A DNA stretch of 30,191 nt, from NCBI GenBank assembly GCA_031261125.1, contig JAISJZ010000094.1, positions 1 to 30,191 of the forward strand, in the 5' to 3' direction. Position 1 is the first letter of the stretch, and each line of letters starts with the position of its first letter. Below the pieces are notes generated by a model. It did not search any database and was not told the origin of the DNA. It saw only the letters and a list, made by a program, of their open reading frames with translations. The position numbers and the translations under genes were made by a program. This document shows positions 497-26,872 of this stretch, piece by piece. This DNA is from Planctomycetaceae bacterium (GTDB lineage: Bacteria > Planctomycetota > Planctomycetia > Pirellulales > Thermoguttaceae).

Positions 497-1840
497 TCAG
501 TAATCCAGCCCGACATCCCGAAAAAACGACGGGTACAGCCGGCAAATGCAGTCCGCACTGTCAATTTTCACGCCGTCAAGCCGCAAACCGATGAGTCCCA
601 ACGCCAATGCCAGCCGCGGGTCGCCGTCCGGTTCAATTACCGCCGGCTGCAAGTGCTTGCGGGGAACAATCAAAAAGCCGTCTTCAAATTCCGTCAGGTT
701 CACGCCGAACTTTCTTAACTCGGCAAATAACTTCGGCAAACGTTCCGGTTCCCGCTTGCGGATATGAGCAATGTTCGACACCCGCGACGGCGACGCGGCG
801 AACATCGCACAAACGGCAAACGTCTGAATCGAATCAATCATATCGAACATATCAACGGACACTCCCCTTAGTAAAGCGTTCTCCTGCTTGGAAACAATCA
901 CCGAATTATCCTCAAACGCAACGCTGCACCCCATCCGTTGAAGGATATAGACGAATTCCAACTCTTTCTGAATACTGTGTTTCGTCAATCCTTTCACGGC
1001 AACTTGTCCGCCGTTAATGGCGACTGCCGCAAACGCATAATTTGCTAAACCGGCATCCGGTTCGACAACATAGATATGCGGCTTGTACTTCGTTCCTTGC
1101 GGAATAAAATATGTTGTACCGTGAGCAAAAAGAGGATGTTCACCGTCGGTATGTGTTTCGATATCAATGCCGAATTCTTCCATCACGTTCAGTGTCATTG
1201 AAATATACGGGCAGCAACTCAACTGATTGGCAACGTATAATTCCACCGTGCCGTTTTGGGCGGCGAGCGGCGACGCAAGCAGAATACCGCTCAAATACTG
1301 ACTGGAAACGGTACCCGACAGAGCGGCATAACGCCGACCAGTGCCGCTCATTTCCGAAACGATGCCGTACCGTTTTGCCGACGGACTTTCACCGCTGCGT
1401 CCCAGAACGCCGTCTATCAGCAGCGGAAGCGCATCGTAAGCGTCTTCGCTGCGTACATCGGCACCGAGTTGATTCAGCCCGTACAGCAAATCGCCCATCG
1501 GGAAGTGCCGAACCCGTTTATCGCCGCTGATGCGGTACAAGCCGCGGGAAAACGCCAACGCCGCCGTCAAAAAGTTTGCCGTCAGGATACTGCCTTCCAC
1601 GTCGATATATTCTTCATCTACGGGAAATACGCCGTTTTGACCGGTAATTTCGATTCGACCGTGCGATGAATTCTGCCGGAGGTTCAGCCCAAGTTGCCGG
1701 AGGGCGTTGACCATTACCTGCTGGTCTTGAGCATAAAACGAACCTTCGAGGACGGTTTGTCCGTCGGCTAATGCGGCACAGATTAAAGCCCGTTTGGCGA
1801 TACTTTGTGAACTGGGCGGGAAAAGTACAGCGTCTAACAT
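497..1840 (-). CDS. aroA: EPSP synthase (AroA) homolog with degenerate PEP-binding site
   Basis: Colinear with AroA: PPSSQSIAKRALICAALADG, VSSQYLSGILLA, PYISMT, EPD, D313-like MIDS, REPERL, GDPRLA. Several invariant residues are substituted (see findings). Confidence 0.85.
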   Translation of the reverse strand: MLDAVLFPPSSQSIAKRALICAALADGQTVLEGSFYAQDQQVMVNALRQLGLNLRQNSSHGRIEITGQNGVFPVDEEYIDVEGSILTANFLTAALAFSRGLYRISGDKRVRHFPMGDLLYGLNQLGADVRSEDAYDALPLLIDGVLGRSGESPSAKRYGIVSEMSGTGRRYAALSGTVSSQYLSGILLASPLAAQNGTVELYVANQLSCCPYISMTLNVMEEFGIDIETHTDGEHPLFAHGTTYFIPQGTKYKPHIYVVEPDAGLANYAFAAVAINGGQVAVKGLTKHSIQKELEFVYILQRMGCSVAFEDNSVIVSKQENALLRGVSVDMFDMIDSIQTFAVCAMFAASPSRVSNIAHIRKREPERLPKLFAELRKFGVNLTEFEDGFLIVPRKHLQPAVIEPDGDPRLALALGLIGLRLDGVKIDSADCICRLYPSFFRDVGLDY

Positions 1841-1867
1841 AACCGGAGCATTAACAAAATTAACGGA

Positions 1868-1909
1868 GGCAGTTAGTGATTGTCCGTTTTTAATTATTCA
1901 TTGTCAATT
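1868..1909 (-). repeat. Six degenerate tandem heptamers in the aroA-cheA intergenic region
   Basis: Minus strand reads AATTGAC-AATGAAT-AATTAAA-AACGGAC-AATCACT-AACTGCC. Confidence 0.65.
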
Positions 1910-1950
1910 TTTCCATACTTCTGATTTTCTCCATTATTCATCGTTCCTTA

Positions 1951-1959
1951 TGCTATAAT
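1951..1959 (+). promoter_or_regulatory. Extended -10 sigma70-type promoter element upstream of cheA
   Basis: TGCTATAAT is a perfect TGnTATAAT, 53 nt upstream of the cheA ATG. No good -35 seen. Confidence 0.55.
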
Positions 1960-2012
1960 ACGCTGGAAGTTCCTCCGTCGGCAACCGGCGGGGCTAAATA
2001 CGAGAGAGTAAA

Positions 2013-4226
2013 ATGTCCACCGATACCGCCACCACCGTACCGCAGCGAGGCGTTGACCGGATGCTTGTCCGGCTTGAACACCTTGACAAACTGCTCAACC
2101 TCGCCGGCGAGGTGATTATTACGTCCTCGACGCTGCACGAATTGCAGCGCGATATGACCGATGCTGTTACGCACCGTAAGCCAATGACCGAAGGCGACTT
2201 ACAAGTCATTAAGTCCGCCGATGAAGCGTCTGCCCGGATTTCGCAAGACCTGCACGACCTCGTGATGGCAATCCGAATGGTCGAAATCGGTGAAACGTTC
2301 AAACTGTTCCGCCGTCCCGTTCGCGATTTGGCACGGAACCTAAAAAAAGAAATCGACCTGAAATTTGAAGGCGAAAAAGTTCTCATCGACAAAGCCCTTG
2401 CCGAAAAACTTGTCGAACCGCTGCTCCACCTTCTCCGCAACGCTGCCGACCACGGTCTCGAAACGCCGATTGAACGGATTCACAACAACAAGAACGAAAA
2501 GGGCATTATTCTCGTTAAAGCAGTCGAACACGAAGCCGAAACGGAAATTATTGTTTCCGACGACGGACGCGGTATTGATGCTGATAAAATTTACCCGAAA
2601 GCGGAACAACTTGGTTTAATTACGCCCGGAAGCCGCCCGCCGCTGTTGAATGTTCTTTGTATGTCCGGTTTTTCTATGAAGGAAAAAGCGACGGATACAT
2701 CGGGACGCGGTGTCGGTCTCGATTTGGTGAATACAATGGTGAACGAATTCGACGGCACCATTACCTTGGAAAACGACCCCGGACAAGGGGCGACGTTCCA
2801 CCTGAAAATTCCGAAACTCAAAGCGGTTAACATCATTGATGCGCTCATTGTCCGCTGTACCAACACGCTGTACGCTCTGTCGATTGACAAGGTCGTCAGT
2901 TTGCAAGGAGTGAAGGCGGACAGTATCCAAGCGTCAATGGACAGAGAACGGTTCATTCAGTATCTTGGTCGCCCGATTACACTGTTCGATTTATCGGAAC
3001 TGCTCGGCGGCGGGGCATCGGAACAGGAAAATCCCGAAGTGGTGCCGGTTGTCATTATCGAAGGCAAACACAGTAAAATTGCCTGTGTTGTTACGGAATT
3101 TTTGGCTCCGTCAAAACTCGTCAATGTTCCGCTTGCAACGGATATGTTCGGTAAAGAAGCGGCAGGCATTGCCGGAACGTGTATCATCAGCGGCGGACGT
3201 GTCGGTATGACGGTTGACATTGACACCGTTGTTGCGCTTGCCGCAGGCGACCCGTTAAAGCAGGAAGAAGGACACGAAGATGCCGCCGCATTCAGCGAAG
3301 GGGTTCAAGCACTGCCCGCTAACGATAAACCATTTGATTCCTCCGTTCCTGATTCTGCCGCCGTCGGACACACACAGGACGAGTTAATCGAAAAGTCCAA
3401 ACTGTCGGCACAGCGGGACAGAATTGCGAACCGCATCGAGGAGAGCAGTCAGAAGGATTTAACAGATACAGACATTTCCGATTTGCTCACAGAACTTTCC
3501 CGCGGTTTAATGGAATTGCAGGATGAACTGTTGACACTGGAAAATGAGAAAGACCCCGAATTGATGAAAGGGGCGTTCCGCCGGCTGCACGCGGCGAAAG
3601 GCAACTTCACGATGTTAGGCGTTTCCACCTCGGCAGGATTGGCGCATCAACTCGAAACACTGCTGGATTATGTCCGCAAAGACCGGCTCGAAATATCGCA
3701 GGAATTGATGGACATTCTCCTCGACGGCGTTGCGGAGTTGAACAACGCGACGAAGATGCTGCCGAAACAGCAGCCGGTTGATAACGCTGCTTTGCTTGAA
3801 CGGATTAAAACGGTATTGGATGCGCAGCAGAAGGCAAAACCGATAACCGACCCGGATGCGGTGTTGGGAACAACGTTCACACTGGTACCGACGGTGGAGT
3901 TGCAACTGTTAGGTGCATTGAAACAAGGTTCACAGGCGTATGAAACGTTCATCCGCTTCAAGCCCGGCAGGCAAGCGGATTTCTTGGTGGCGTATTTGAC
4001 GCTGCGAAAGTTGTGTTATCACGGAACGGTGTTGGCAACGCTGCCGGCAATCAGCGATATAGAGAACGGTTTTTGCGGGACGGCAATGAAGGTCCTATGG
4101 GCATCGCTGTTGAAACCGGACGAATTGAAGTCAGCGATTGACCGTTGGGCGGGGTTGTTTAACATTGAGGAACATCACAGCGTTCCGACGACGGTATTCC
4201 GGTACGATGCCAATGCGGAAATCTGA
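2013..4226 (+). CDS. cheA: Chemotaxis histidine kinase CheA, circularly permuted (P3-P4-P5-P1-P2)
   Basis: P3 (LVRLEHLDKLLNLAGEVII), N box HLLRNAADHG, G1 SDDGRGID, G2 SGRGVGLD, GQGATF, CheW-like P5, Hpt FRRLHAAKGNF (His526), then a P2-like domain at the C-terminus. Confidence 0.93.
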   Translation: MSTDTATTVPQRGVDRMLVRLEHLDKLLNLAGEVIITSSTLHELQRDMTDAVTHRKPMTEGDLQVIKSADEASARISQDLHDLVMAIRMVEIGETFKLFRRPVRDLARNLKKEIDLKFEGEKVLIDKALAEKLVEPLLHLLRNAADHGLETPIERIHNNKNEKGIILVKAVEHEAETEIIVSDDGRGIDADKIYPKAEQLGLITPGSRPPLLNVLCMSGFSMKEKATDTSGRGVGLDLVNTMVNEFDGTITLENDPGQGATFHLKIPKLKAVNIIDALIVRCTNTLYALSIDKVVSLQGVKADSIQASMDRERFIQYLGRPITLFDLSELLGGGASEQENPEVVPVVIIEGKHSKIACVVTEFLAPSKLVNVPLATDMFGKEAAGIAGTCIISGGRVGMTVDIDTVVALAAGDPLKQEEGHEDAAAFSEGVQALPANDKPFDSSVPDSAAVGHTQDELIEKSKLSAQRDRIANRIEESSQKDLTDTDISDLLTELSRGLMELQDELLTLENEKDPELMKGAFRRLHAAKGNFTMLGVSTSAGLAHQLETLLDYVRKDRLEISQELMDILLDGVAELNNATKMLPKQQPVDNAALLERIKTVLDAQQKAKPITDPDAVLGTTFTLVPTVELQLLGALKQGSQAYETFIRFKPGRQADFLVAYLTLRKLCYHGTVLATLPAISDIENGFCGTAMKVLWASLLKPDELKSAIDRWAGLFNIEEHHSVPTTVFRYDANAEI

Positions 4227-4291
4227 CCTCTTGACGCTGAACGGTCCATAAATTACACTGTTCTTTTCGATTTTCGTGAACCGCTTGAACA

Positions 4292-5680
4292 ATGCCGACC
4301 TCCGCCGCTTCCGAAACACTGCCGGAACCGAAATACTACCTGGGATGCTACAAACCGGGTATTGCCGGAGTGTTCCATACAACCGGTGTCCGCTTACTGC
4401 TTGTTCTGCCGTTTGCCGTTGCTGTTTCCATTTCGGCGGGCGATATTTTGGCAACGCTCATTCTTGCTTGTTGGCTGCTCGGCGGCAGTTGGAAAGAACG
4501 CCGGACAATTCTCCGCAACAGTCCGGTACTGCTCGCTGCCTTGCCGTTTATCGCTCTGACTTTTATCGGCATTTTCCGCTACGAAGATTCGCTGCTCAAA
4601 TCGCTCCGGTATTGGAACGGGCATTATCCGCTGTTTTACGTTGCCGTTTTTGCAACGCTCCTCGACCGTAAAACCGACCGCTGTGCGCTGCTGTCGTGCA
4701 TCAATCTTGCATTTCTTTTGACGTGGTTCTGTCCCGTTTATCTTGCCGTTTATTATGCCGATGCTCTGCCGGAGATATTTTACAGCGCGCGTATCCATTC
4801 CTTTCAACTGTACCGCAATACAATATGTTTCGGAATGGCGTTAAACATCTGGATTCTCCTTTGGATTTATCTGCCGTATTCATCACGGCACATTCCGCTG
4901 GTACAGCGTGTTGTGCCACGGTTCCTGCTCGACGCAATGGAAACCGCAAGCACTTCGCTGCCGGCACGCTGGAACAGAACAGTGATAATGCTTTTCACGC
5001 TGCGGTGGGGCATCGTAATATTCGCGACCTATTATCTGTTCTTTGTCAATTCGTCCCGAACGGCGCAGTTGGCAATTCTTTTCGCCTATGCCGCGGGACT
5101 GCTGCTCAAAACCGGTTGGCGGGGATTTGCCGCCGCTGCGGGACTCATCGTACTGCTCATCGGTGCTTCATCGGAATTCTCCGACATTTTCCAAAAGAAA
5201 ATCAATCTGTCGATTAGTGAATCAAAAATGTTCTATGACCTTATGTCCGGCAAGGTCAATGAAAAAAAATATGCCAAAACGGAATATATGCGGCTCGGAA
5301 CGTACTACTTTCTGATTCCTGCCGTTTCGGAAAAACCGGTCTTCGGCTGGGGAATGGAACAAGGACAAATTCTTGTCAAGGAGCGTACCCGGTACAACGA
5401 CCCGCATAGTGAATTTCTGCTTGTCGTGTTGCAGCACGGTTTTGCCGGACTTATTCTTTTTCTTTTTTGGCTGCTTGTATTTTTGCTGAACACATTCCGG
5501 TTCAAACCGCCGGTGCGTCAACTCGGCATTTGTTTGTTTATCGTATTGTGTATTGACTGCTTTTTTAATTGTGCGCTGTCATACCATCGGGAAGCATTTC
5601 TGTTCTGCTTTTTGTTTGCGGTGCTGTTTGTGATAGAAAGTACCGCGGAACTCTCTTTTACCGTTTCTTCCGAACAATGA
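4292..5680 (+). CDS. O-antigen ligase / Wzy_C family membrane protein
   Basis: Many TM segments; SSRTAQ, RLGTY..., PVFGWG, DPHSEFL..LQHGFAGL match the WaaL/Wzy_C periplasmic-loop motifs. Confidence 0.8.
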   Translation: MPTSAASETLPEPKYYLGCYKPGIAGVFHTTGVRLLLVLPFAVAVSISAGDILATLILACWLLGGSWKERRTILRNSPVLLAALPFIALTFIGIFRYEDSLLKSLRYWNGHYPLFYVAVFATLLDRKTDRCALLSCINLAFLLTWFCPVYLAVYYADALPEIFYSARIHSFQLYRNTICFGMALNIWILLWIYLPYSSRHIPLVQRVVPRFLLDAMETASTSLPARWNRTVIMLFTLRWGIVIFATYYLFFVNSSRTAQLAILFAYAAGLLLKTGWRGFAAAAGLIVLLIGASSEFSDIFQKKINLSISESKMFYDLMSGKVNEKKYAKTEYMRLGTYYFLIPAVSEKPVFGWGMEQGQILVKERTRYNDPHSEFLLVVLQHGFAGLILFLFWLLVFLLNTFRFKPPVRQLGICLFIVLCIDCFFNCALSYHREAFLFCFLFAVLFVIESTAELSFTVSSEQ

Positions 5681-7710
5681 ACACATTGCAAAATACCGTA
5701 TTCCTGTTCCTTCTTTTGACGGTTCTGCCGCCGGTGTTTGCGCAACAGCGGCAGCAGCCGAAAATCGGATATGTTTATCCGGCAGGCGGACAACAAGGAA
5801 CAACGTTCCGTGTTATCCTCGGCGGTCGGCAAGTTGCCCGAAGCACCGGAGTTTTCGTTTCCGGCAACGGTGTAAGCGGCAAAATCGTCTTCGGAGGTAA
5901 TACCGTCATCAACAACGGCGAGCAAAACAGGGTTGCCCGGTACTTGTTCGACAACCGCCGGTTTGAACTTGGACTGCTGAACCAAAAGCCGAAACCGCCC
6001 GTCTCTACCGAACTGATGCCGTTGCCGAAGCCGGAGGAAATCAAAAACCGGTACCTGTTATTTAACGGCATTGACAGCGCAGCGGCAGAGGATTTGCAGT
6101 TGATATACTATTGGTACTTTATGCCGCGTCCCGACCCGCGACCGGGCGACGCTCTGAACCAAGCCGTTCAGGCAGAAATCACCATTGATGCTGACGCCGA
6201 ACCCGGAAGCCGTGATTTGCGGCTGTTGACGAACGGCGGTTTAACGCCGCCCGTCCGGTTCATTATCGGTACGAATTATGAGGTGAAAGAAATCGAACCG
6301 AACGAACCGGCGGTCGGAAACGAAGATACAAAATCATATTCCTCATTTTCTCCGTTTTCTTCTTCGTTCAAACAACTGCCGGCGCAGAAATTGCCGGTTG
6401 TGTTTAACGGACAGATTTACCGCGGTGATGTGGATAGATTCTTCTTTGAAGCCGGTAAGGGGCAAAAACTGGTTGTCCGTGTTCGGGCGAGGTATTTAAT
6501 GCCGTATTTGGCGGACGGCGTTCCGGGCTGGTTTCAACCGGTGATAACGATTTATGATTCCAGCGGGGAGAAATGCGGCGAATCTTATTCGTACCGGTTC
6601 GACCCCGACCCGGTGATTTTGTTCGACGTACCGAAGAATGATGTTTATTCTATCGAAATACAGGACACTGTTTATCGCGGCAGACCGGATTTTGTTTATC
6701 GAATAAGTGTTGATGAATCGCCGTTTGTAACATCGGTGTTTCCGCTCGGCGGAAGTACAGGCAGACCGGCAGCGGTAGACATACAGGGCTGGAATCTTCC
6801 GGCGAAGGTTGCAACATTGAAAACGGAAAAAGCCGGTGTATTTGAATTGACGAAAATCGGCAAAACATCATTGCCGTTCCCGATTCGGTATGCCGTTGAC
6901 GATTTACCGGAAACGTTTGAAAAAGAATCGAACAACAGCGTTTCGTTATCGCAAAAAGTGAAGTTGCCGGTGATTGTTAACGGCCGCATTAACACGGCGG
7001 CGGATACGGATTACTTTACGTTCAATGGTAAGAAAGGCAGCAAAATCGTGCTGGACGTTTCTGCCCGTTCGTTAAACTCACCGCTGGACGCAAGTATCGA
7101 GTTGCTTGATTCAACCGGAAAAATTCTGGCAGCAAACGATGACCGCTCCGGCAGCGACGGACCGAACATCGGTTTGGAAACACATCACGCCGACCCGTAC
7201 ATTCTTGCGGAACTTCCGGCAGACGGGATTTACACAGTACGGCTTTTTAATGTCTTGCAGCAGGGCGGAACGGAATATGGTTACCGTCTGCGCATTTCGC
7301 CGCCGCAGATGGATGTGGCCGTCTATGCGGAACCGGCGAGTATTTACTTTTCCGGCAGAGAACAGCCGCTCAAATTGACGGTTATCCGCAAAGACGGTTT
7401 TGACGAAAACATTAAAGTTGAATTGACAAAGAGCAGTAAGGAAAAGGGCTTTGAACTAACGGCATCGGACATTCCGAAAGGAAAAGACAGCACAACGGCA
7501 ATGCTGAAAGCAACGGCTTACACGGGGCAATTAACGGACATTGATTTGGAAGCGGTCATTACCGTCAATGGTAAAGAACTCCGCCGAAAGGTGATTGCCG
7601 TTGACGACTGGGAACAAGCGTTTATTTATCATCATCTCGTACCGGCATCATCGTTGAACGTTGCCGGTCAGAAAAGATATGTACCGCCGCGCCGGGACGG
7701 AGGGAAATAA
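5677..7710 (+). CDS. Exported protein with repeated PPC (pre-peptidase C-terminal)-like domains, planctomycete type
   Basis: ATG at 5677 overlaps the upstream stop (ATGA); signal-peptide-like N-terminus; PKIGYVYPAGGQQGTT, EIEPN, DVDRFFF, EKESNNS, DTDYFTF, SPLDASIEL, DPYILAELPADGIYTV repeats. No protease catalytic domain recognised. Confidence 0.7.
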   Translation: MNTLQNTVFLFLLLTVLPPVFAQQRQQPKIGYVYPAGGQQGTTFRVILGGRQVARSTGVFVSGNGVSGKIVFGGNTVINNGEQNRVARYLFDNRRFELGLLNQKPKPPVSTELMPLPKPEEIKNRYLLFNGIDSAAAEDLQLIYYWYFMPRPDPRPGDALNQAVQAEITIDADAEPGSRDLRLLTNGGLTPPVRFIIGTNYEVKEIEPNEPAVGNEDTKSYSSFSPFSSSFKQLPAQKLPVVFNGQIYRGDVDRFFFEAGKGQKLVVRVRARYLMPYLADGVPGWFQPVITIYDSSGEKCGESYSYRFDPDPVILFDVPKNDVYSIEIQDTVYRGRPDFVYRISVDESPFVTSVFPLGGSTGRPAAVDIQGWNLPAKVATLKTEKAGVFELTKIGKTSLPFPIRYAVDDLPETFEKESNNSVSLSQKVKLPVIVNGRINTAADTDYFTFNGKKGSKIVLDVSARSLNSPLDASIELLDSTGKILAANDDRSGSDGPNIGLETHHADPYILAELPADGIYTVRLFNVLQQGGTEYGYRLRISPPQMDVAVYAEPASIYFSGREQPLKLTVIRKDGFDENIKVELTKSSKEKGFELTASDIPKGKDSTTAMLKATAYTGQLTDIDLEAVITVNGKELRRKVIAVDDWEQAFIYHHLVPASSLNVAGQKRYVPPRRDGGK

Positions 7711-7792
7711 GAATAATCAATTTCTTGGAATATCATCATCTTCGGCGGCGTTATAATGATATACGGTGCTGTGATTCACAAGAAAGAACATT

Positions 7793-8278
7793 ATGCCGCT
7801 GCCGGTTGAACGATTTCAGGAATTAGCAGAGCAATTCGCTTCGCCGCTGACTTTGTACGCCCGGCAATTTTTCGCCGATAACGATTTTCACCGCGGCGAA
7901 GATGCTGTTCAAAATGTTCTGTTCCGATTGAGTCAACAACCGAAAGAACCCGAAAACGCTGCCGCTTGGCTTTACAAAGCCGTCCGCAATGAGGCAATTT
8001 TGGCATCACGCAGCGAAACACGGCGGAAACGGCGGGAAGCCGGAACGGAGAACGGTAAGTTCCCGTTCTTTCAACTGTTGCCGGACAATCAACTCGATGC
8101 TGTCGAAGTTGCCGATGCGCTGCAAAAATTGGAACCGGATGAGCGGGAAATCATTACACTGCACATTTGGGGCGGTTTGCCGTTTGCGGAAATTGCCGAA
8201 GTCGCCGGTGTACCGCAAACGACAGCGTATCGGAAGTATAAAGAATCTTTAGAAAAATTGAAACAATGGATGAGTTAG
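7793..8278 (+). CDS. ECF-type RNA polymerase sigma-70 family factor
   Basis: Region 2 (LTLYARQF, EDAVQNVLF, AWLYKAVRNEA) and region 4 (ALQKLEPDEREIITLHIWGGLPFAEIAEVAGVPQTTAYRKY). Confidence 0.9.
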   Translation: MPLPVERFQELAEQFASPLTLYARQFFADNDFHRGEDAVQNVLFRLSQQPKEPENAAAWLYKAVRNEAILASRSETRRKRREAGTENGKFPFFQLLPDNQLDAVEVADALQKLEPDEREIITLHIWGGLPFAEIAEVAGVPQTTAYRKYKESLEKLKQWMS

Positions 8279-8514
8279 AATTAAAATTGCGTTCCCTGAA
8301 ACCGGTACAGGTATCGTTTTTATTGCGGACAAGTCCGCCGGCTAAAAGCGATTGGCGGTTTTACTGCGTTCAAATCCCGACAGCACTGGCGGTGTCTGTA
8401 CTGTTGACCGCGGCGTTGTCAATGCTGCCGAGCGGAAAACAAGCGGAACAGTTTTTCGCTGAACATATTCAGGCACGGCTTATTGTGTCTTTACCTACTC
8501 TTAACTTCCTGTAA
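8266..8514 (+). CDS. Small single-TM protein, candidate anti-sigma/partner of the upstream ECF
   Basis: Overlaps the sigma stop by 13 nt; N-terminal DELELKLRSLKP followed by a hydrophobic helix (IPTALAVSVLLTAALSML). Confidence 0.45.
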   Translation: MDELELKLRSLKPVQVSFLLRTSPPAKSDWRFYCVQIPTALAVSVLLTAALSMLPSGKQAEQFFAEHIQARLIVSLPTLNFL

Positions 8515-8525
8515 CATTCAATCCA

Positions 8526-10475
8526 ATGTCAAACGAACAAATCGAAAAGCCGCAAAAACGCGGATGCCGGCGGTATTTCCGTTTCGGCTGCATTACACTG
8601 CTTATTCTCGCCGTACCGTTTTACTGGTTCTGCCTGCATACAACGCCGCTGAAAATCAGTAAGGAAACAACGTACATCACCGAACCGCTCACGCCGGACG
8701 GCAAACACGTTGATTACTACAAAGCACTGAAACAGAGAATGAATTCGCCGGAAATGAAAACCGATAACAACGGTTATCGGCTCGTTGTACAGCAATTCGG
8801 TTTTCAGGAAAAAGACATTCCGCTCGGAGCACTTTATGAAGAACTCGGTTTGAAATACGATGCAGCACAAGTACCGCCGCATAAAGTCATTTCGCCTTTT
8901 CAGTTTCTTACCCAATTTAGGGCAGCAAATAAGGACAATAAGTCCGCGGAGCAGTATAGTGCTTTTATTGAGGAACACGGTTATTGGACAGAAAAAGACA
9001 TTCCGCAACTTGCCGATTGGGAGAAAAACAACAACGCCGGATGCGATGTCCTCGTTCAGGCGTTAAATAAACCGGTGTTCTGCATACCGAATAGAGGCGT
9101 TAATATCTTTCTGCCCGGTATTCAGCATCTTCGGGAATTTTCCCGGTGTCTGCACGGGCGGGCGTTGCTGCGTATCGGCGATGGAAACATTGACGGGGCA
9201 ATAGACGACATCATCGCGGTTCATAAACTTGCCCGTTTTACGGGACAGCAAGGAACGCTGATGACCGGTCTTCTCGGTCTTGCGATTGAAGGTACTGCTC
9301 AAAGCATCGGCATCAACGCAAACCCGGACAAACCGGCAACGAAGGAACAACTGCTGCGTCTGCTCAAAGAACGGAACGCACTGCCGCCGATGTTCACTTA
9401 CAAAGAAATACTTGAAACGGAACGGCTGTTCTGTATGATGAATATTCAAAGAATGTTTTCCGGCAAAGGAGCGAATGATTTAGCGGGCAGAAGTATTGCT
9501 TGGTCGTTAAGGAACACGATGGACGAAAATATCGTGATGCGGCAGTTCACGGACTTTTGGAATACGATGGTACAAGCCAAACAGGATGAAGTGATTGTGA
9601 AGCATCTGCGTGAACATCAATACGACACATTTTTGCCGAGTAATCTCTTTGTCCGGCAGCGGAGTCAAGCAATGAGCAACGTGTTAATTGCTCTATTAAC
9701 TCCGGCGTTAGGATCAGCCCGCGAATCATTTAACCGTTTGGAATGTCAGAATAACCTTCTGCGGATTGGTACGGTTTTATTGCTTTACGAAAAGGAACAC
9801 GGTACATTACCGGACGAAACAACAATGCTGGCGACGGGTTTAATCCCGTTTCCGAAATGTCCGTCCGATACCGGCGGTTATTACGAAATCGTTACAGACA
9901 AGAACGCCAAGGAATTGCTGGTCGAAAAATACAACGGTGAAAAAACACCGCACAAGGAGCAATATAATGTGTTTCTCCGCAGCGGAGCAGAAAAAAAACG
10001 GCACCGCCGGAGAAAAAAAATGAACGATACCATTTTTGAAGTTGACGACATTGCCGGTACGGAACAAGTCGGACGTTTTTTGGCGGAACATCTTCCCGAC
10101 GGCAGCGTTGTTGCCCTTGTCGGAACGCTCGGTGCCGGTAAAACCCGGCTCGTGCAGGCGGCTGCCGAAGCGTTGGGTGTGGAACGCGGCACGGTTTCCA
10201 GTCCGACATTTGTCCTGCTTCACGAATACACGGACGGCGTTAAGCCGGTTTATCATTTTGACGCTTACCGCTTGACAAGCGAGACACAGTTCCGGCAACT
10301 TGGTCCCGACGATTATTTTGAGGGCGGCGGTTTGACATTTATCGAATGGGCGGACAAGTTTCCGGCAGTGCTGCCGAAGGAGTATTGGGAGATACGGATT
10401 GACATTCTGGAAAACACAAAACGGCGTTTCACTGTTTCGCACGGGAGTGTTGTATCAAACATAAAAACGGAGTAG
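8526..10475 (+). CDS. Membrane-anchored hypothetical protein with C-terminal DUF1559/pseudopilin-like motif, read in-frame into TsaE
   Basis: Basic N-terminus plus TM helix; helical body; LLTPALGSARESFNRLECQNNLLRIG..LLLYEKEHGTLP near aa 390-430; TsaE from aa 499. Confidence 0.6.
   Translation: MSNEQIEKPQKRGCRRYFRFGCITLLILAVPFYWFCLHTTPLKISKETTYITEPLTPDGKHVDYYKALKQRMNSPEMKTDNNGYRLVVQQFGFQEKDIPLGALYEELGLKYDAAQVPPHKVISPFQFLTQFRAANKDNKSAEQYSAFIEEHGYWTEKDIPQLADWEKNNNAGCDVLVQALNKPVFCIPNRGVNIFLPGIQHLREFSRCLHGRALLRIGDGNIDGAIDDIIAVHKLARFTGQQGTLMTGLLGLAIEGTAQSIGINANPDKPATKEQLLRLLKERNALPPMFTYKEILETERLFCMMNIQRMFSGKGANDLAGRSIAWSLRNTMDENIVMRQFTDFWNTMVQAKQDEVIVKHLREHQYDTFLPSNLFVRQRSQAMSNVLIALLTPALGSARESFNRLECQNNLLRIGTVLLLYEKEHGTLPDETTMLATGLIPFPKCPSDTGGYYEIVTDKNAKELLVEKYNGEKTPHKEQYNVFLRSGAEKKRHRRRKKMNDTIFEVDDIAGTEQVGRFLAEHLPDGSVVALVGTLGAGKTRLVQAAAEALGVERGTVSSPTFVLLHEYTDGVKPVYHFDAYRLTSETQFRQLGPDDYFEGGGLTFIEWADKFPAVLPKEYWEIRIDILENTKRRFTVSHGSVVSNIKTE
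10020..10475 (+). CDS. tsaE: tRNA threonylcarbamoyladenosine biosynthesis ATPase TsaE (YjeE)
   Basis: VVALVGTLGAGKTRL (P-loop), VSSPTFVLLHEY, VYHFDAYRL, FIEWADK; own ATG at 10020 with GGAG 7 nt upstream. Confidence 0.9.
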   Translation: MNDTIFEVDDIAGTEQVGRFLAEHLPDGSVVALVGTLGAGKTRLVQAAAEALGVERGTVSSPTFVLLHEYTDGVKPVYHFDAYRLTSETQFRQLGPDDYFEGGGLTFIEWADKFPAVLPKEYWEIRIDILENTKRRFTVSHGSVVSNIKTE

Positions 10476-23651: not shown

Positions 23652-25028
23652 TCAATGTGTAAGGCGTACTGTGAACGGCTTCGGATTGTTCGGATAAGAA
23701 ACGCTGACCGTACCGCCGCCGTCGTCTGTCTTGATAGTGTACTCTTTACCGTACAGCGGTTCAATCTTGAACGCCGCGGGCTGTCCCAGCGCAACTTGCA
23801 TCGCCGACACGGCGGTTTCACACTTCGTCCGGTCTAACGCACAATACTCCATCAGGTCGGTAATACCGCGGAGGAGAAAACCGGCAATCACCGGTTCGCT
23901 GTCCGTTCCCCATTTTGCCCGCAGTTGGTCTTCCATCTGATTCAACGCCGTCAAACGTTTGTAAAACGGTTTCTCCGATTCGTCAATCACCGTCCGCATC
24001 GCTTGGAGGTAAAACACTTCATCGGCGGACAATTTTTTCAACAGTCCTTTGTTGACAGTATCGTAAATGCCGCGTTCGTACAGTTCGGCAATTTCATCTT
24101 CTTCGAGGGCTTTGTCAAGACCGTACTGCATTATTTCATTATACACTTTCAATCCGCTGGCGCGGTCGCCGACCCACATCTCACTGTCCGGTGTCCAATG
24201 GTCGAGTTGTTCCTTCATCATTTCGTAAAGGAACTGTACATCGCTCTTTTGCAACTTTGGATGAAGCAGAACGGCTTGCAGAACATCGACGGCGTGCAGC
24301 CGTATTTGGGCTGCCTTTGTGCGGGTACCGGGGCTGCGGACTTCGGCGGCAAGTTGTGCTATGCGGAATATGTACGCCAATGCCTCCGCCGCTTTGCCGA
24401 CCGCTCCGTCCTGCAACGCTTGGGCAACCGCAAACTCTTCCAGAAGCATATAATCGGCGAGGTAATCGGCGGCTTTGGTAACGGGAGCGGTACCGGTTTC
24501 AGATTCAACAAATTCAAAGGAAAAACAAACGCTGCTGCGTTCAAGCATCTTCCGAATGTTAAGCCGTTTCGTATCCGTGCGGGTCAGAATATCTTTAACG
24601 TCTTGCAGCGTGGCACTGTCGATTTTCCAATCGCCGTAAGAAACACCGGCGCGGAGTGTTTCGATTTCGCCGGGATTTTCGTCGTAGATACGGAACGCCC
24701 TGTCTAATTCGGTGGCGATATTATTGTCCGGCGGAACATCTTCGGCGAAAATGTCGGCAGGCGTTCCGTTTTCTTTGATAACCTTTTTGATTTCCCCGAT
24801 AAGTTCCGGGTTTTTCTCTTTTCGGGTGGCTTCGAGTCCGTTGAATTTCTCTTTCGGCAGCACTTCGCCGCCGTATTCAACGGTTTTCGGCTGGGCGGCG
24901 TTGTACTTATCCGTGCGGCGTTGCGAACTGCCGACGATAGCGTACAAGATAATCGCCAGCAGCAGGATACCGCCCAGAACAATATGCCCTTGGGACGACC
25001 AGTCGAATTTCTCATTCTCTTGTTTCAT
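23652..25028 (-). CDS. Hypothetical N-terminally anchored alpha-helical protein
   Basis: 458-aa ORF in the minus-strand gene run; single TM (IVLGGILLLAIILYAIVG); shares a helical motif with the 8526 protein. Confidence 0.75.
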   Translation of the reverse strand: MKQENEKFDWSSQGHIVLGGILLLAIILYAIVGSSQRRTDKYNAAQPKTVEYGGEVLPKEKFNGLEATRKEKNPELIGEIKKVIKENGTPADIFAEDVPPDNNIATELDRAFRIYDENPGEIETLRAGVSYGDWKIDSATLQDVKDILTRTDTKRLNIRKMLERSSVCFSFEFVESETGTAPVTKAADYLADYMLLEEFAVAQALQDGAVGKAAEALAYIFRIAQLAAEVRSPGTRTKAAQIRLHAVDVLQAVLLHPKLQKSDVQFLYEMMKEQLDHWTPDSEMWVGDRASGLKVYNEIMQYGLDKALEEDEIAELYERGIYDTVNKGLLKKLSADEVFYLQAMRTVIDESEKPFYKRLTALNQMEDQLRAKWGTDSEPVIAGFLLRGITDLMEYCALDRTKCETAVSAMQVALGQPAAFKIEPLYGKEYTIKTDDGGGTVSVSYPNNPKPFTVRLTH

Positions 25029-25064: not shown

Positions 25065-25505
25065 TCAACGTGAAACCCGGTTCCCCGCAACTTCGTCCAT
25101 CTCAACCGTTTCCCGCCTTGTCTGTTCGGCGTTGTATATTTCCCGTTTTTTCTCTTTGAGTTTTTCAACCGTCTTCAATTCCTTGTTCGCTTCAATGACG
25201 ATTTGCCTGCGGCGTTCGATTTCCTCGTCAAGTATTCTGATTTTTTCATCGCAGTCGTTCCTGTCCGCCAGAAGATACATTTCCTGCCGCCGCAGTCCGA
25301 GAAGAAAATCGACATTGACCGCTTTGCCCGGCTGAATCATTGTACGTCCGTTCTCCAAGACGCTTTTTAAGGCACTGTCAATCTCGGTGCGTTTTGTTTC
25401 TACAATCCGGCGGGCTTCGTAGGCCTTCGCCAACTCGCCCTGTTTTTTTTTCAGGACGTTATCGCGGATTGTTATCAACGGTTCAAGACGGAAAGAAAAA
25501 GGCAT
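25065..25505 (-). CDS. fliJ: Flagellar export chaperone FliJ
   Basis: FSFRLEPLITIR N-terminus, coiled coil, LKTVEKLKEKK...EMDE C-terminus; TAATG overlap with the fliI stop. Confidence 0.85.
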   Translation of the reverse strand: MPFSFRLEPLITIRDNVLKKKQGELAKAYEARRIVETKRTEIDSALKSVLENGRTMIQPGKAVNVDFLLGLRRQEMYLLADRNDCDEKIRILDEEIERRRQIVIEANKELKTVEKLKEKKREIYNAEQTRRETVEMDEVAGNRVSR

Positions 25506-26830
25506 TATGAACAATTCGTCATTAACTCTTTGATTTGCTGCTTCGTTTCTTCGATACTTGCCGGTTCGGACACGTTCTGCTGTAAAAACTTGTCAATCGC
25601 CGGTTTCATTTTAATCGCCTTGTCAACGTCGGGATTGCTGCCCGTCTGGTACGCACCGATTGAAATCACATCTTCTTTGTCCAAATAGGCACCGAGCAGC
25701 CGCCGCATTGCCCTTGCCGCCTGCAAGTGTTCCTTGTCGCAGATGTCCGGCATCAGCCGGCTGATACTTTCAACCGGGTCAATCGCCGGATAATGTCCGC
25801 GGGTACTCAACTTCCTGCTCAACCAAATATGTCCGTCGAGCAAGCCCCGCACAGTATCGCCGATAATATCGCTGTGGTCGTCGCCTTCCACAAGTACCGT
25901 GAAAAACGCCGTTATCGTTCCTTTTACCGAACGTCCCGCCCGTTCCACCAGCCGCGGCAACATTCCGAACACCGACGGCGGATAACCCTTCGTCGTCGGC
26001 GGTTCCCCGGCGGCTAATCCGATTTCCCGCTGCGCCATTGCAAAACGGGTCAGCGAATCCATCATTACCAAGACGTTTTTGCCTTGGTCGCGGAAATACT
26101 CGGCGATTGCCATTGCTGTCATCGGCGCACGCACCCGCATCAACGCCGGTTCGTTTGACGTTGCCACCACCACCACGGACTTTTTGATACCGTCTCCTAA
26201 ATCCCGTTCGATAAAATCGTTCAATTCCCGACCGCGCTCGCCGATAAGCCCGATGACAATCACTTCCGCTTCGGTGTAGCGGGCAATCATTCCGAGCGTT
26301 ACGCTTTTACCGACACCGGAACCCGCAAAGATGCCGAGACGCTGTCCCGCCCCGCAGGTCAACATTCCGTCAATCGCCCGGACACCGGTCGAAAGAATTT
26401 TGTTAATCCGCGGTCGGGAACTGGCAATCGGCGGTTCATTGTCGAAGACCGTTCGGTCTTCCAAAACCGGTACCGGTTTGCCGTCCACGGGTTTTCCTTC
26501 GGCATTGACAACGCGTCCGAGCAGATTTTCGCCGACTTTCAGCCACGGCAGGGTCTTAACAAGCGTAATGCGGGTGCCGCGGCGGACACCGGTAATATCG
26601 CTGTACGGATACAGCAGCGTTAAATCGTCTTTGAACCCGATGACTTCGGCATTGACATTTCCGCCGCCGCCAGCCGGGGTTAACTGTATTTCCGCCACAG
26701 AACCGACCGGTGCGGGAAAACCGGCAGCGGACAGCATCATTCCCTGCGTCTGCACAATCGTACCGGTAAGACGTACCGGCATTATGTTCTGGATATGTTC
26801 CGCGAATCGTTCCGCTAATCGGTTCTGCAT
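25505..26830 (-). CDS. fliI: Flagellar export ATPase FliI
   Basis: GQRLGIFAGSGVGKS, LIGERGRE, DSLTRFAMAQREIGLA, GYPPSVF, GSVKGTITAFFTVLVEGDD, GHYPAID, IGAY..GS; followed by fliJ. Confidence 0.93.
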   Translation of the reverse strand: MQNRLAERFAEHIQNIMPVRLTGTIVQTQGMMLSAAGFPAPVGSVAEIQLTPAGGGGNVNAEVIGFKDDLTLLYPYSDITGVRRGTRITLVKTLPWLKVGENLLGRVVNAEGKPVDGKPVPVLEDRTVFDNEPPIASSRPRINKILSTGVRAIDGMLTCGAGQRLGIFAGSGVGKSVTLGMIARYTEAEVIVIGLIGERGRELNDFIERDLGDGIKKSVVVVATSNEPALMRVRAPMTAMAIAEYFRDQGKNVLVMMDSLTRFAMAQREIGLAAGEPPTTKGYPPSVFGMLPRLVERAGRSVKGTITAFFTVLVEGDDHSDIIGDTVRGLLDGHIWLSRKLSTRGHYPAIDPVESISRLMPDICDKEHLQAARAMRRLLGAYLDKEDVISIGAYQTGSNPDVDKAIKMKPAIDKFLQQNVSEPASIEETKQQIKELMTNCS

Positions 26831-26872
26831 AACGGACAATAGCGAAAACGCCGGTTTATATCAAGAGGAGAA

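Follow-up and report, generated by a model that had tools for sequence, protein, structure and literature searches.

What becomes of the control of CheA when its substrate domain is tied to the opposite end of the protein? CheA is a textbook signalling kinase, and the way in which chemoreceptors control the meeting of its P1 domain with its P4 domain is still debated and has been studied through engineered linkers and liberated domains. The question is raised by one gene in a 30,191-nucleotide stretch of a Planctomycetaceae bacterium (GenBank assembly GCA_031261125.1, contig JAISJZ010000094.1, positions 1 to 30,191; hereafter the window), whose product carries the dimerisation (P3), kinase (P4) and CheW-like (P5) domains first, and the histidine phosphotransfer (Hpt) domain P1 and the response-regulator-binding domain P2 last. 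With a probability of roughly 80%, we consider that the gene's product is a functional chemosensory histidine kinase of the CheA type, cyclically permuted to P3-P4-P5-linker-P1-P2, that works with a CheY-like partner. The family to which it belongs amounts to a natural and long-lived experiment, where the substrate domain hangs from the other end of the core and the catalytic elements have all stayed under selection.

Domain order of the gene and its family

Canonical CheA, as known from T. maritima and E. coli, is arranged as P1-P2-P3-P4-P5. The product of the open reading frame (ORF) in the window, P0001, shares with it the five domains, the catalytic boxes and the acceptor-histidine motif, but its P1 and P2 stand after P5, so that P1 is tethered to the P5 end, and it carries signature residues of its own and belongs to a separate clade. 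A Pfam scan reads the ORF as P3, P4, P5, a linker of 73 amino acids, P1 (an Hpt domain with His526) and P2, and finds no match to HisKA or Response_reg in P0001 (Table 1). The core of P3, P4 and P5 matches the solved CheA structures 6s1k (E 7e-54) and 1b3q (E 2e-51), P5 aligns to the P5 of both, and the AlphaFold model of P3 consists of two long helices at residues 21-53 and 60-88. The best solved matches of P1 are likewise CheA P1 domains, namely those of T. maritima (1tqg and 2ld6, E about 6e-12), followed by those of E. coli and Salmonella. In the model P1 forms five helices with His526 on the second, and this residue aligns to the histidine of FRALHTLKG in T. maritima P1 (1tqg); every permuted family member checked has a histidine in an H-x-x-K-G/S motif.

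The C-terminal segment, for which the first-pass annotation had noted only a resemblance to P2, is a P2 domain by several measures. Its score against Pfam P2 (PF07194) is 21.6 bits in the whole protein, slightly below the cut-off of 23 bits, and 24.6 bits when the domain is scanned by itself; the same family is matched in the C-terminal domains of all 30 aligned homologues, at best with an E of 7.7e-9. A profile of the domain finds one confident solved match, 1u0s_A, the P2 of T. maritima CheA crystallised with CheY (E 2.6e-5). The same structure is the only significant Foldseek match of the AlphaFold model (E 3e-6, template-modelling score 0.88 on the target, root-mean-square deviation 1.7 Å), whose mean predicted local distance difference test score (pLDDT) is 86.5. 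The rotation is also visible by direct alignment to the canonical CheA of the same genome, a protein of 915 amino acids with the order Hpt-Hpt-dim-HATPase-CheW on contig C342: residues 19-406 of P0001 correspond to its residues 499-874, and residues 503-583 to its residues 40-99 and 260-348. Pfam, solved-structure matches, fold prediction, conservation and alignment to the paralogue all agree, and confirm that P0001 retains the five CheA domains, with P1 and P2 as a block behind P5. The positions given in the first-pass annotation hold throughout, among them those of the in-frame stop codon ahead of the ORF and of His526.

Table 1. Features of the permuted cheA gene and of its surroundings in the window (signature residues are counted over 46 permuted and 120 canonical cores).
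Feature	Residues	Position	Strand	Remarks
Permuted cheA ORF (P0001)	1-737	2013..4226	+	737 aa, uninterrupted
In-frame TAA		1995..1997	+	Six codons 5' of the ATG
P3 dimerisation domain	19-87	2067..2273	+	Pfam H-kinase_dim PF02895, 33.9 bits, cut-off 23
His81, P3 helix 2	81	2253..2255	+	His in 46/46 permuted cores
P4 kinase domain	134-268	2412..2816	+	Pfam HATPase_c PF02518, 58.2 bits
P4 N box		2427-2456	+	Invariant across the family
P4 G1 box		2559-2579	+	Invariant across the family
P4 G2 box		2697-2723	+	Invariant across the family
Asn273, inserted residue in P4-P5 linker	273	2829..2831	+	46/46 permuted; gap in 117/120 canonical
P5 CheW-like domain	277-407	2841..3233	+	Pfam CheW PF01584, 44.1 bits
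Pro366/Lys368 in P5	366, 368	3108..3116	+	46/46 permuted; canonical mostly Gln/Glu and Glu
P5-P1 linker, variable and acidic	412-484	3246..3464	+	73 aa, predicted disordered
P1 / Hpt five-helix domain	485-606	3465..3830	+	Pfam Hpt PF01627 at 499-578, 38.7 bits
His526 (CAC), predicted phospho-acceptor	526	3588..3590	+	Invariant in 30-sequence alignment
P2 response-regulator-binding domain	621-732	3873..4208	+	Beta-alpha-beta-beta-alpha-beta fold; Pfam P2 at 643-710
EPSP-synthase family gene (PF00275)		497..1840	-	271.7 bits; divergent, upstream of cheA
TGCTATAAT, extended -10-like motif		1951..1959	+	Seen in the sequence alone
FliI-type flagellar/type III secretion system (T3SS) export ATPase		25505..26839	-	ATP-synt_ab + T3SS_ATPase_C; about 21 kb from cheA

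The same order was sought in related genomes and is widespread. An initial protein search yielded over 120 full-length collinear homologues, drawn from many assemblies and 44-83% identical, an exhaustive search of representatives reached collinear members at only 33-40% identity, and a profile search added further permuted CheAs, one of them on a closed chromosome of 4.48 Mb. We collected 389 CheA-like proteins in all, of which 257 are permuted, with exactly one Hpt and one P2 downstream of the core, and 126 are canonical; the remaining 6 lack an Hpt and are all short (263-484 amino acids). The homologues are collinear over 95-100% of their length and come from independent assemblies, and all ten distant representatives that were scanned have the same Pfam order, with P2 scoring as high as 76.8 bits. 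Permuted proteins have a median length of 722 amino acids (range 354-830, short fragments included) and a median of 12 residues before the core (at most 40 among the 257), and their linkers have medians of 67 amino acids between P5 and Hpt (47-187) and 17 between Hpt and P2 (13-63). Since 257 homologues keep this order, its origin by chance is excluded, and the permuted CheA is a large and old family rather than a one-off. Core-only members were considered as evolutionary intermediates and did not convince: of two that were looked up, one (P0124) runs into seemingly unrelated sequence where its short contig stops, and the other (P0138) has a single TAG after P5.

Conservation is high where catalysis is expected to depend on it. 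In 30 homologues at 42-80% identity neither His526 nor the residues of the N, G1, F and G2 boxes vary, and the ATP-binding box residues are invariant across 46 diverse permuted cores and identical to those of 120 canonical CheAs. Mean column identity in the homologue alignment is 58% over the full length and 63% in P2.

How does this arrangement relate to the CheA variants already on record? Split CheAs, such as CheA3/CheA4 of R. sphaeroides and CheAs with a separate Hpt, likewise do not have P1 upstream of P3, and their P1, too, is expected to receive its phosphoryl group from a P3-P4-P5 core. In contrast to these split or bipartite forms, the permuted CheA is one polypeptide with a fixed order that keeps P2, and it has neither a second CheW-like domain nor a degenerate kinase remnant. 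Among the variants in the text of a recent survey are CheAs that have lost P2, gained receivers or duplicated their Hpt, CheW or P2 domains, and bipartite forms. The order of P1 and P2 before P3 is customary and no part of the survey's core definition of CheA; a C-terminal P1-P2 is not mentioned in its text (Berry, Andrianova & Zhulin 2023, PMC10782961). In its Table S2, which gives domains in positional order, no row of the alternative cellular function (ACF) class or of the start of F1 has an Hpt after CheW. A description of a permuted CheA, or of one with a C-terminal Hpt, was not found in the searchable full text of the literature, a scope outside which Wuichet & Zhulin 2010 falls. The order, which the first-pass annotation did not know to have been described, is therefore probably, though not certainly, undescribed, as far as these partial sources go. 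Database entries name the family proteins "CheW", "Hpt domain-containing" or "ATP-binding protein", and with such generic names and with scores below the cut-offs of the CheA equivalogs, genome-based censuses of chemotaxis systems may miss or mislabel the family.

The candidate CheY-like partner and the probable pathway

In 12 related loci (L006, L007, L009-L011, L015, L016 and L028-L032) a gene for a single-domain receiver of 131-137 amino acids lies directly upstream of the permuted cheA. The two genes overlap by 8 nt in L015, L016, L028 and L029, and also in the L034 fragment, overlap by 11 nt in L031 and leave a gap of about 15-90 nt in L032 and L030; in L006, L007, L009, L010 and L011 the receiver gene was located just upstream of cheA by tblastn. 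Locus L028 has the gene order MCP-CheW-response regulator-CheA. The genome of the window has an ortholog of this regulator, P0123, on contig C198 (2632-3069, E 3e-44, the next receiver reaching 4e-15), which shares 84-85% identity with the regulators encoded next to cheA in L006 and L007.

These loci bear on the first-pass description of the gene as an orphan. That description stands for the window, where the Pfam scan found no che or MCP (methyl-accepting chemotaxis protein) gene apart from the cheA ORF itself, and fails for the protein, given the cheY-like gene upstream in the related loci and its ortholog on C198. Elsewhere the genome encodes two CheW proteins, six MCPs, a cheR-cheB-cheD-response regulator cluster, FliM and flagellins. 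A listing of the cheA copies adds only one, the canonical multi-Hpt CheA of C342, which has no che neighbours either and stands beside an autotransporter of 1526 amino acids (2439-7019 and 7200-9947 of that contig). The che genes of this genome are generally scattered, and "orphan" reflects that gene order, not an isolated protein.

From these elements we infer how the protein would work. The P3-P4-P5 core would dimerise and couple to chemoreceptors and CheW as in other CheAs, and the ATP site of P4 would phosphorylate His526 of P1, which would reach it on a flexible, acidic tether of about 70 residues from the C-terminal end of P5 and not from the N-terminus of P3. The terminal P2 would dock a dedicated single-domain CheY-like regulator, in this genome probably P0123, to which P1 would hand the phosphoryl group. 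A C-terminal tether for P1 is plausible because detached P1 works in split and bipartite CheAs and in experiments with liberated P1, which is functional according to work cited in the survey text (PMC10782961). The phosphorylation of His526, the onward transfer, the partner's identity and the output in the cell, be it flagellar or another, are in this way predictions from sequence comparison. The candidate partner makes the effects of tether topology on cis or trans autophosphorylation, array control and phosphotransfer testable in vitro.

Structure prediction was applied to the pair of P2 and P0123. The predicted complex scores 0.48, compared with 0.01 for the best of three controls, which weakly supports the pairing; at least 90% of the contacts agree between runs, and the partner has a pLDDT of 85. 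Of 78 solved complexes 51 reached the mark set for such predictions, as did 2 of 108 mismatched pairs; a score of 0.60 or less was obtained by just 5 of these solved complexes, and by all 4 mismatches that passed.

Several points weigh against the functional reading given above. The score of the P2-P0123 complex may reflect likeness only, as a P2-CheY complex is already solved (1u0s). In the window the partner gene is not next to cheA, and the flanks are not syntenic, so that P0123 is paired with the kinase on grounds of orthology. The AlphaFold model of the full-length protein has a predicted template-modelling score of 0.37 and carries no information on how P1 meets P4, and no RNA run turned up that matches this DNA. 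Lastly, His81, the insertion between P4 and P5 and Pro366/Lys368 could mean that the protein is regulated differently from canonical CheA.

A kinase that is real need not steer a flagellum. That the protein signals through its CheY-like partner into an ACF-type pathway instead is a serious contender, which we place somewhat short of even odds. It is favoured by the lack of cheR and cheB in most family neighbourhoods, by the partner-switching context of locus L033, by a receiver-like gene of about 300 amino acids behind cheA in "Deltaproteobacteria bacterium Smac51" and in a metagenome-assembled genome (MAG) of Nitrospinota, and by the one to five canonical CheAs found in each of the three other family-bearing genomes that were searched. 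The presence of P2 cuts both ways: in the survey's account P2 is missing from most CheAs to which a CheY-like domain is fused, and P2 is also found in planctomycete CheAs filed there under ACF (PMC10782961). On the side of motility, the genome of the window is flagellated (FliM, FliI and flagellins), its sole other CheA is of the multi-Hpt type, and the best natural solved matches of P0123 are motor-binding CheY proteins; these points are not decisive.

Two of the neighbourhoods named here may be described for their own sake. In L033 (1-11119, GCA_964421195.1) a permuted CheA of 830 amino acids with a long linker ends a cluster in which it is preceded by a response regulator-SpoIIE phosphatase, a STAS protein, a response regulator-HATPase_c_2 protein, a second STAS protein, CheW and CheR, and which looks like a chemosensory input into a partner-switching cascade. 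The gene of about 300 amino acids, of a double receiver-like kind, has a receiver-like C-terminal half and an N-terminal half without family assignment, and follows the permuted cheA at a distance of 3 nt or with an overlap of 4 nt, in Smac51 (L031, 12187-13095) and in the Nitrospinota MAG (L032, 12130-13050); the two copies are just 26% identical over about 100 amino acids. As a third conserved component of the system this gene was rejected, there being no ortholog in the genome of the window.

Phylogeny, distribution and control of the kinase

A tree was built from 170 P3-P4-P5 cores, of which 120 are canonical, 46 permuted and 4 short and without Hpt. One branch, with Shimodaira-Hasegawa-like support of 100 and a stem of 0.35, sets the 46 permuted and the 4 short cores opposite the 120 canonical ones, and the permuted family has a single origin on this tree. 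The tree contains no close canonical sister group of the permuted clade, the nearest canonical sequences lying about 1.2 substitutions per site away. The clade is also marked by its own residues (Table 1): at the position of His81 the canonical cores have Gln in 101 and His in 7 of 120, and Asp276 is a further signature beside the inserted Asn273.

The distribution of the family is patchy, although hundreds of bacteria, most of them uncultured, share the arrangement. In the genus of the window, whose MAGs come from termite guts and elsewhere and bear the labels Planctomycetaceae or Thermoguttaceae, a full-length permuted CheA occurs in 22 of 24 species at 73-80% identity. Single genomes of 16 other families of the same order have none (0/16), and an even sample of 400 genomes of the phylum contains three carriers, all from one other family and at 36% identity, with none among 243 high-quality genomes. 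Nitrospinota, the phylum of major marine nitrite oxidisers, has it in 25 of 33 species genomes, so that the permuted CheA is near-universal in the sampled members of this phylum and occurs also in termite-gut planctomycetes. In the phylum of Smac51 only Smac51 itself is positive among 301 genomes. Other carriers are MAGs labelled Candidatus Eisenbacteria, Candidatus Adiutrix, Myxococcales, Phycisphaerae and Planctomycetota, as well as a hydrothermal-vent metagenome, and the ESM Atlas cluster closest to the query has 579 members. Horizontal transfer into the genus of the window would fit such a spread.

Does the rotated order also change how the kinase is controlled? The first-pass annotation had suggested a different geometry of kinase control, and the position of P1 may imply one. 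A stronger proposal is that the family forms a distinct and ancient class of kinase, whose substrate domain would reach the active site from P5, the receptor-bound end, and whose core has acquired co-evolved changes to fit (His81, the P4-P5 insertion and Pro366/Lys368), with a different logic of control. We regard this as possible and rather doubtful, at about one chance in four; were it true, control might run, for example, through phosphorylation in cis instead of in trans, or through receptor gating of P1 via P5.

His81 suggests another scheme as well. Hybrid kinases such as ArcB and BvgS carry their phospho-histidine in a HisKA/DHp domain and a receiver domain before a C-terminal Hpt, which acts downstream, and they share with the permuted CheA an Hpt located C-terminal to the catalytic domain. 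One could therefore picture a two-step relay of the ArcB kind, in which His81 of P3, a histidine in all 46 permuted cores where most canonical ones have Gln, is the primary autophosphorylation site and the C-terminal Hpt the second station. However, a His-Asp-His relay needs a receiver between kinase and Hpt, and the permuted CheA has none; its P3 matches the H-kinase_dim of CheA and not HisKA; its Hpt resembles CheA P1 and has a P2 docking domain behind it, an arrangement that serves direct transfer from P4 to P1; and seven of the 120 canonical CheAs also have a histidine at the position of His81. We consider such a relay very unlikely.

Slightly less credible still is a decayed or repurposed CheA that would serve as a kinase-inactive scaffold, as CheA3 of R. 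sphaeroides does. Its one attraction is that P0001 misses the NCBIfam CheA equivalogs by a wide margin (264.5 against a cut-off of 950 for NF041336, and 201.7 against 793 for NF007835), yet these scores are low because the permuted order leaves only the core (residues 17-410) alignable, and the invariant ATP-box residues and acceptor histidine across the family, together with the strong constraint on the whole protein and on P2 noted above, argue against a loss of activity.

Continuity of the gene and its surroundings

The assembly was checked with Logan contigs of public sequencing runs, not with raw reads. Contigs from two termite-gut studies are collinear with positions 1800-4400 and have no joints; those of one run leave a hole at 3254-3324, and those of a second run bridge 3224-3533 by overlapping, across the P5-Hpt junction that the first-pass annotation had singled out for mapping. 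Strain bubbles occur in the P5-P1 linker (3254-3330) in the public runs, including an in-frame deletion of 3 nt at 3308 in one of them, and such variants fit a weak constraint on the linker, of which residues 417-453 have a pLDDT below 50 in the AlphaFold model. That a P3-P4-P5 gene was joined to a separate Hpt-P2 gene by misassembly or by a lost stop codon is next to impossible: a fragmented MAG (426 contigs, 83.6% complete), the contig break in one public run and a distant member (P0138) with a TAG right behind P5 and an open frame beyond speak for it, whereas 257 collinear homologues from independent assemblies, one of them a closed genome, the bridge in the second run with no joints seen, an in-frame linker and strongly conserved downstream domains speak against it.

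P0138 itself (L035, 301-1658) lies on a contig of 1.6 kb, and its frame continues after the TAG into acidic, linker-like sequence; a genuinely split form, a sequencing error and read-through are all conceivable for this single short contig.

At the 5' end of the gene there is no room for an N-terminal P1, because of the in-frame TAA and of the divergent EPSP-synthase-like gene that ends at 1840. Upstream of cheA stands the motif TGCTATAAT, and the gene may have its own promoter, as had been proposed from this motif; a promoter scan called no plus-strand site at its position. The flanking genes (aroA-like and Wzy_C) have no synteny even with the loci of cheA orthologues that are 78-80% identical. 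Further along the window, a plus-strand ORF of 649 amino acids (8526-10475) has no confident family in its N-terminal 500 or so residues and a TsaE domain (the t6A biosynthesis ATPase) confined to its last 125 or so. The sole motility-related gene of the window is the FliI-type ATPase gene, which is neighboured by ORFs at 23652-25028 and 25065-25514.

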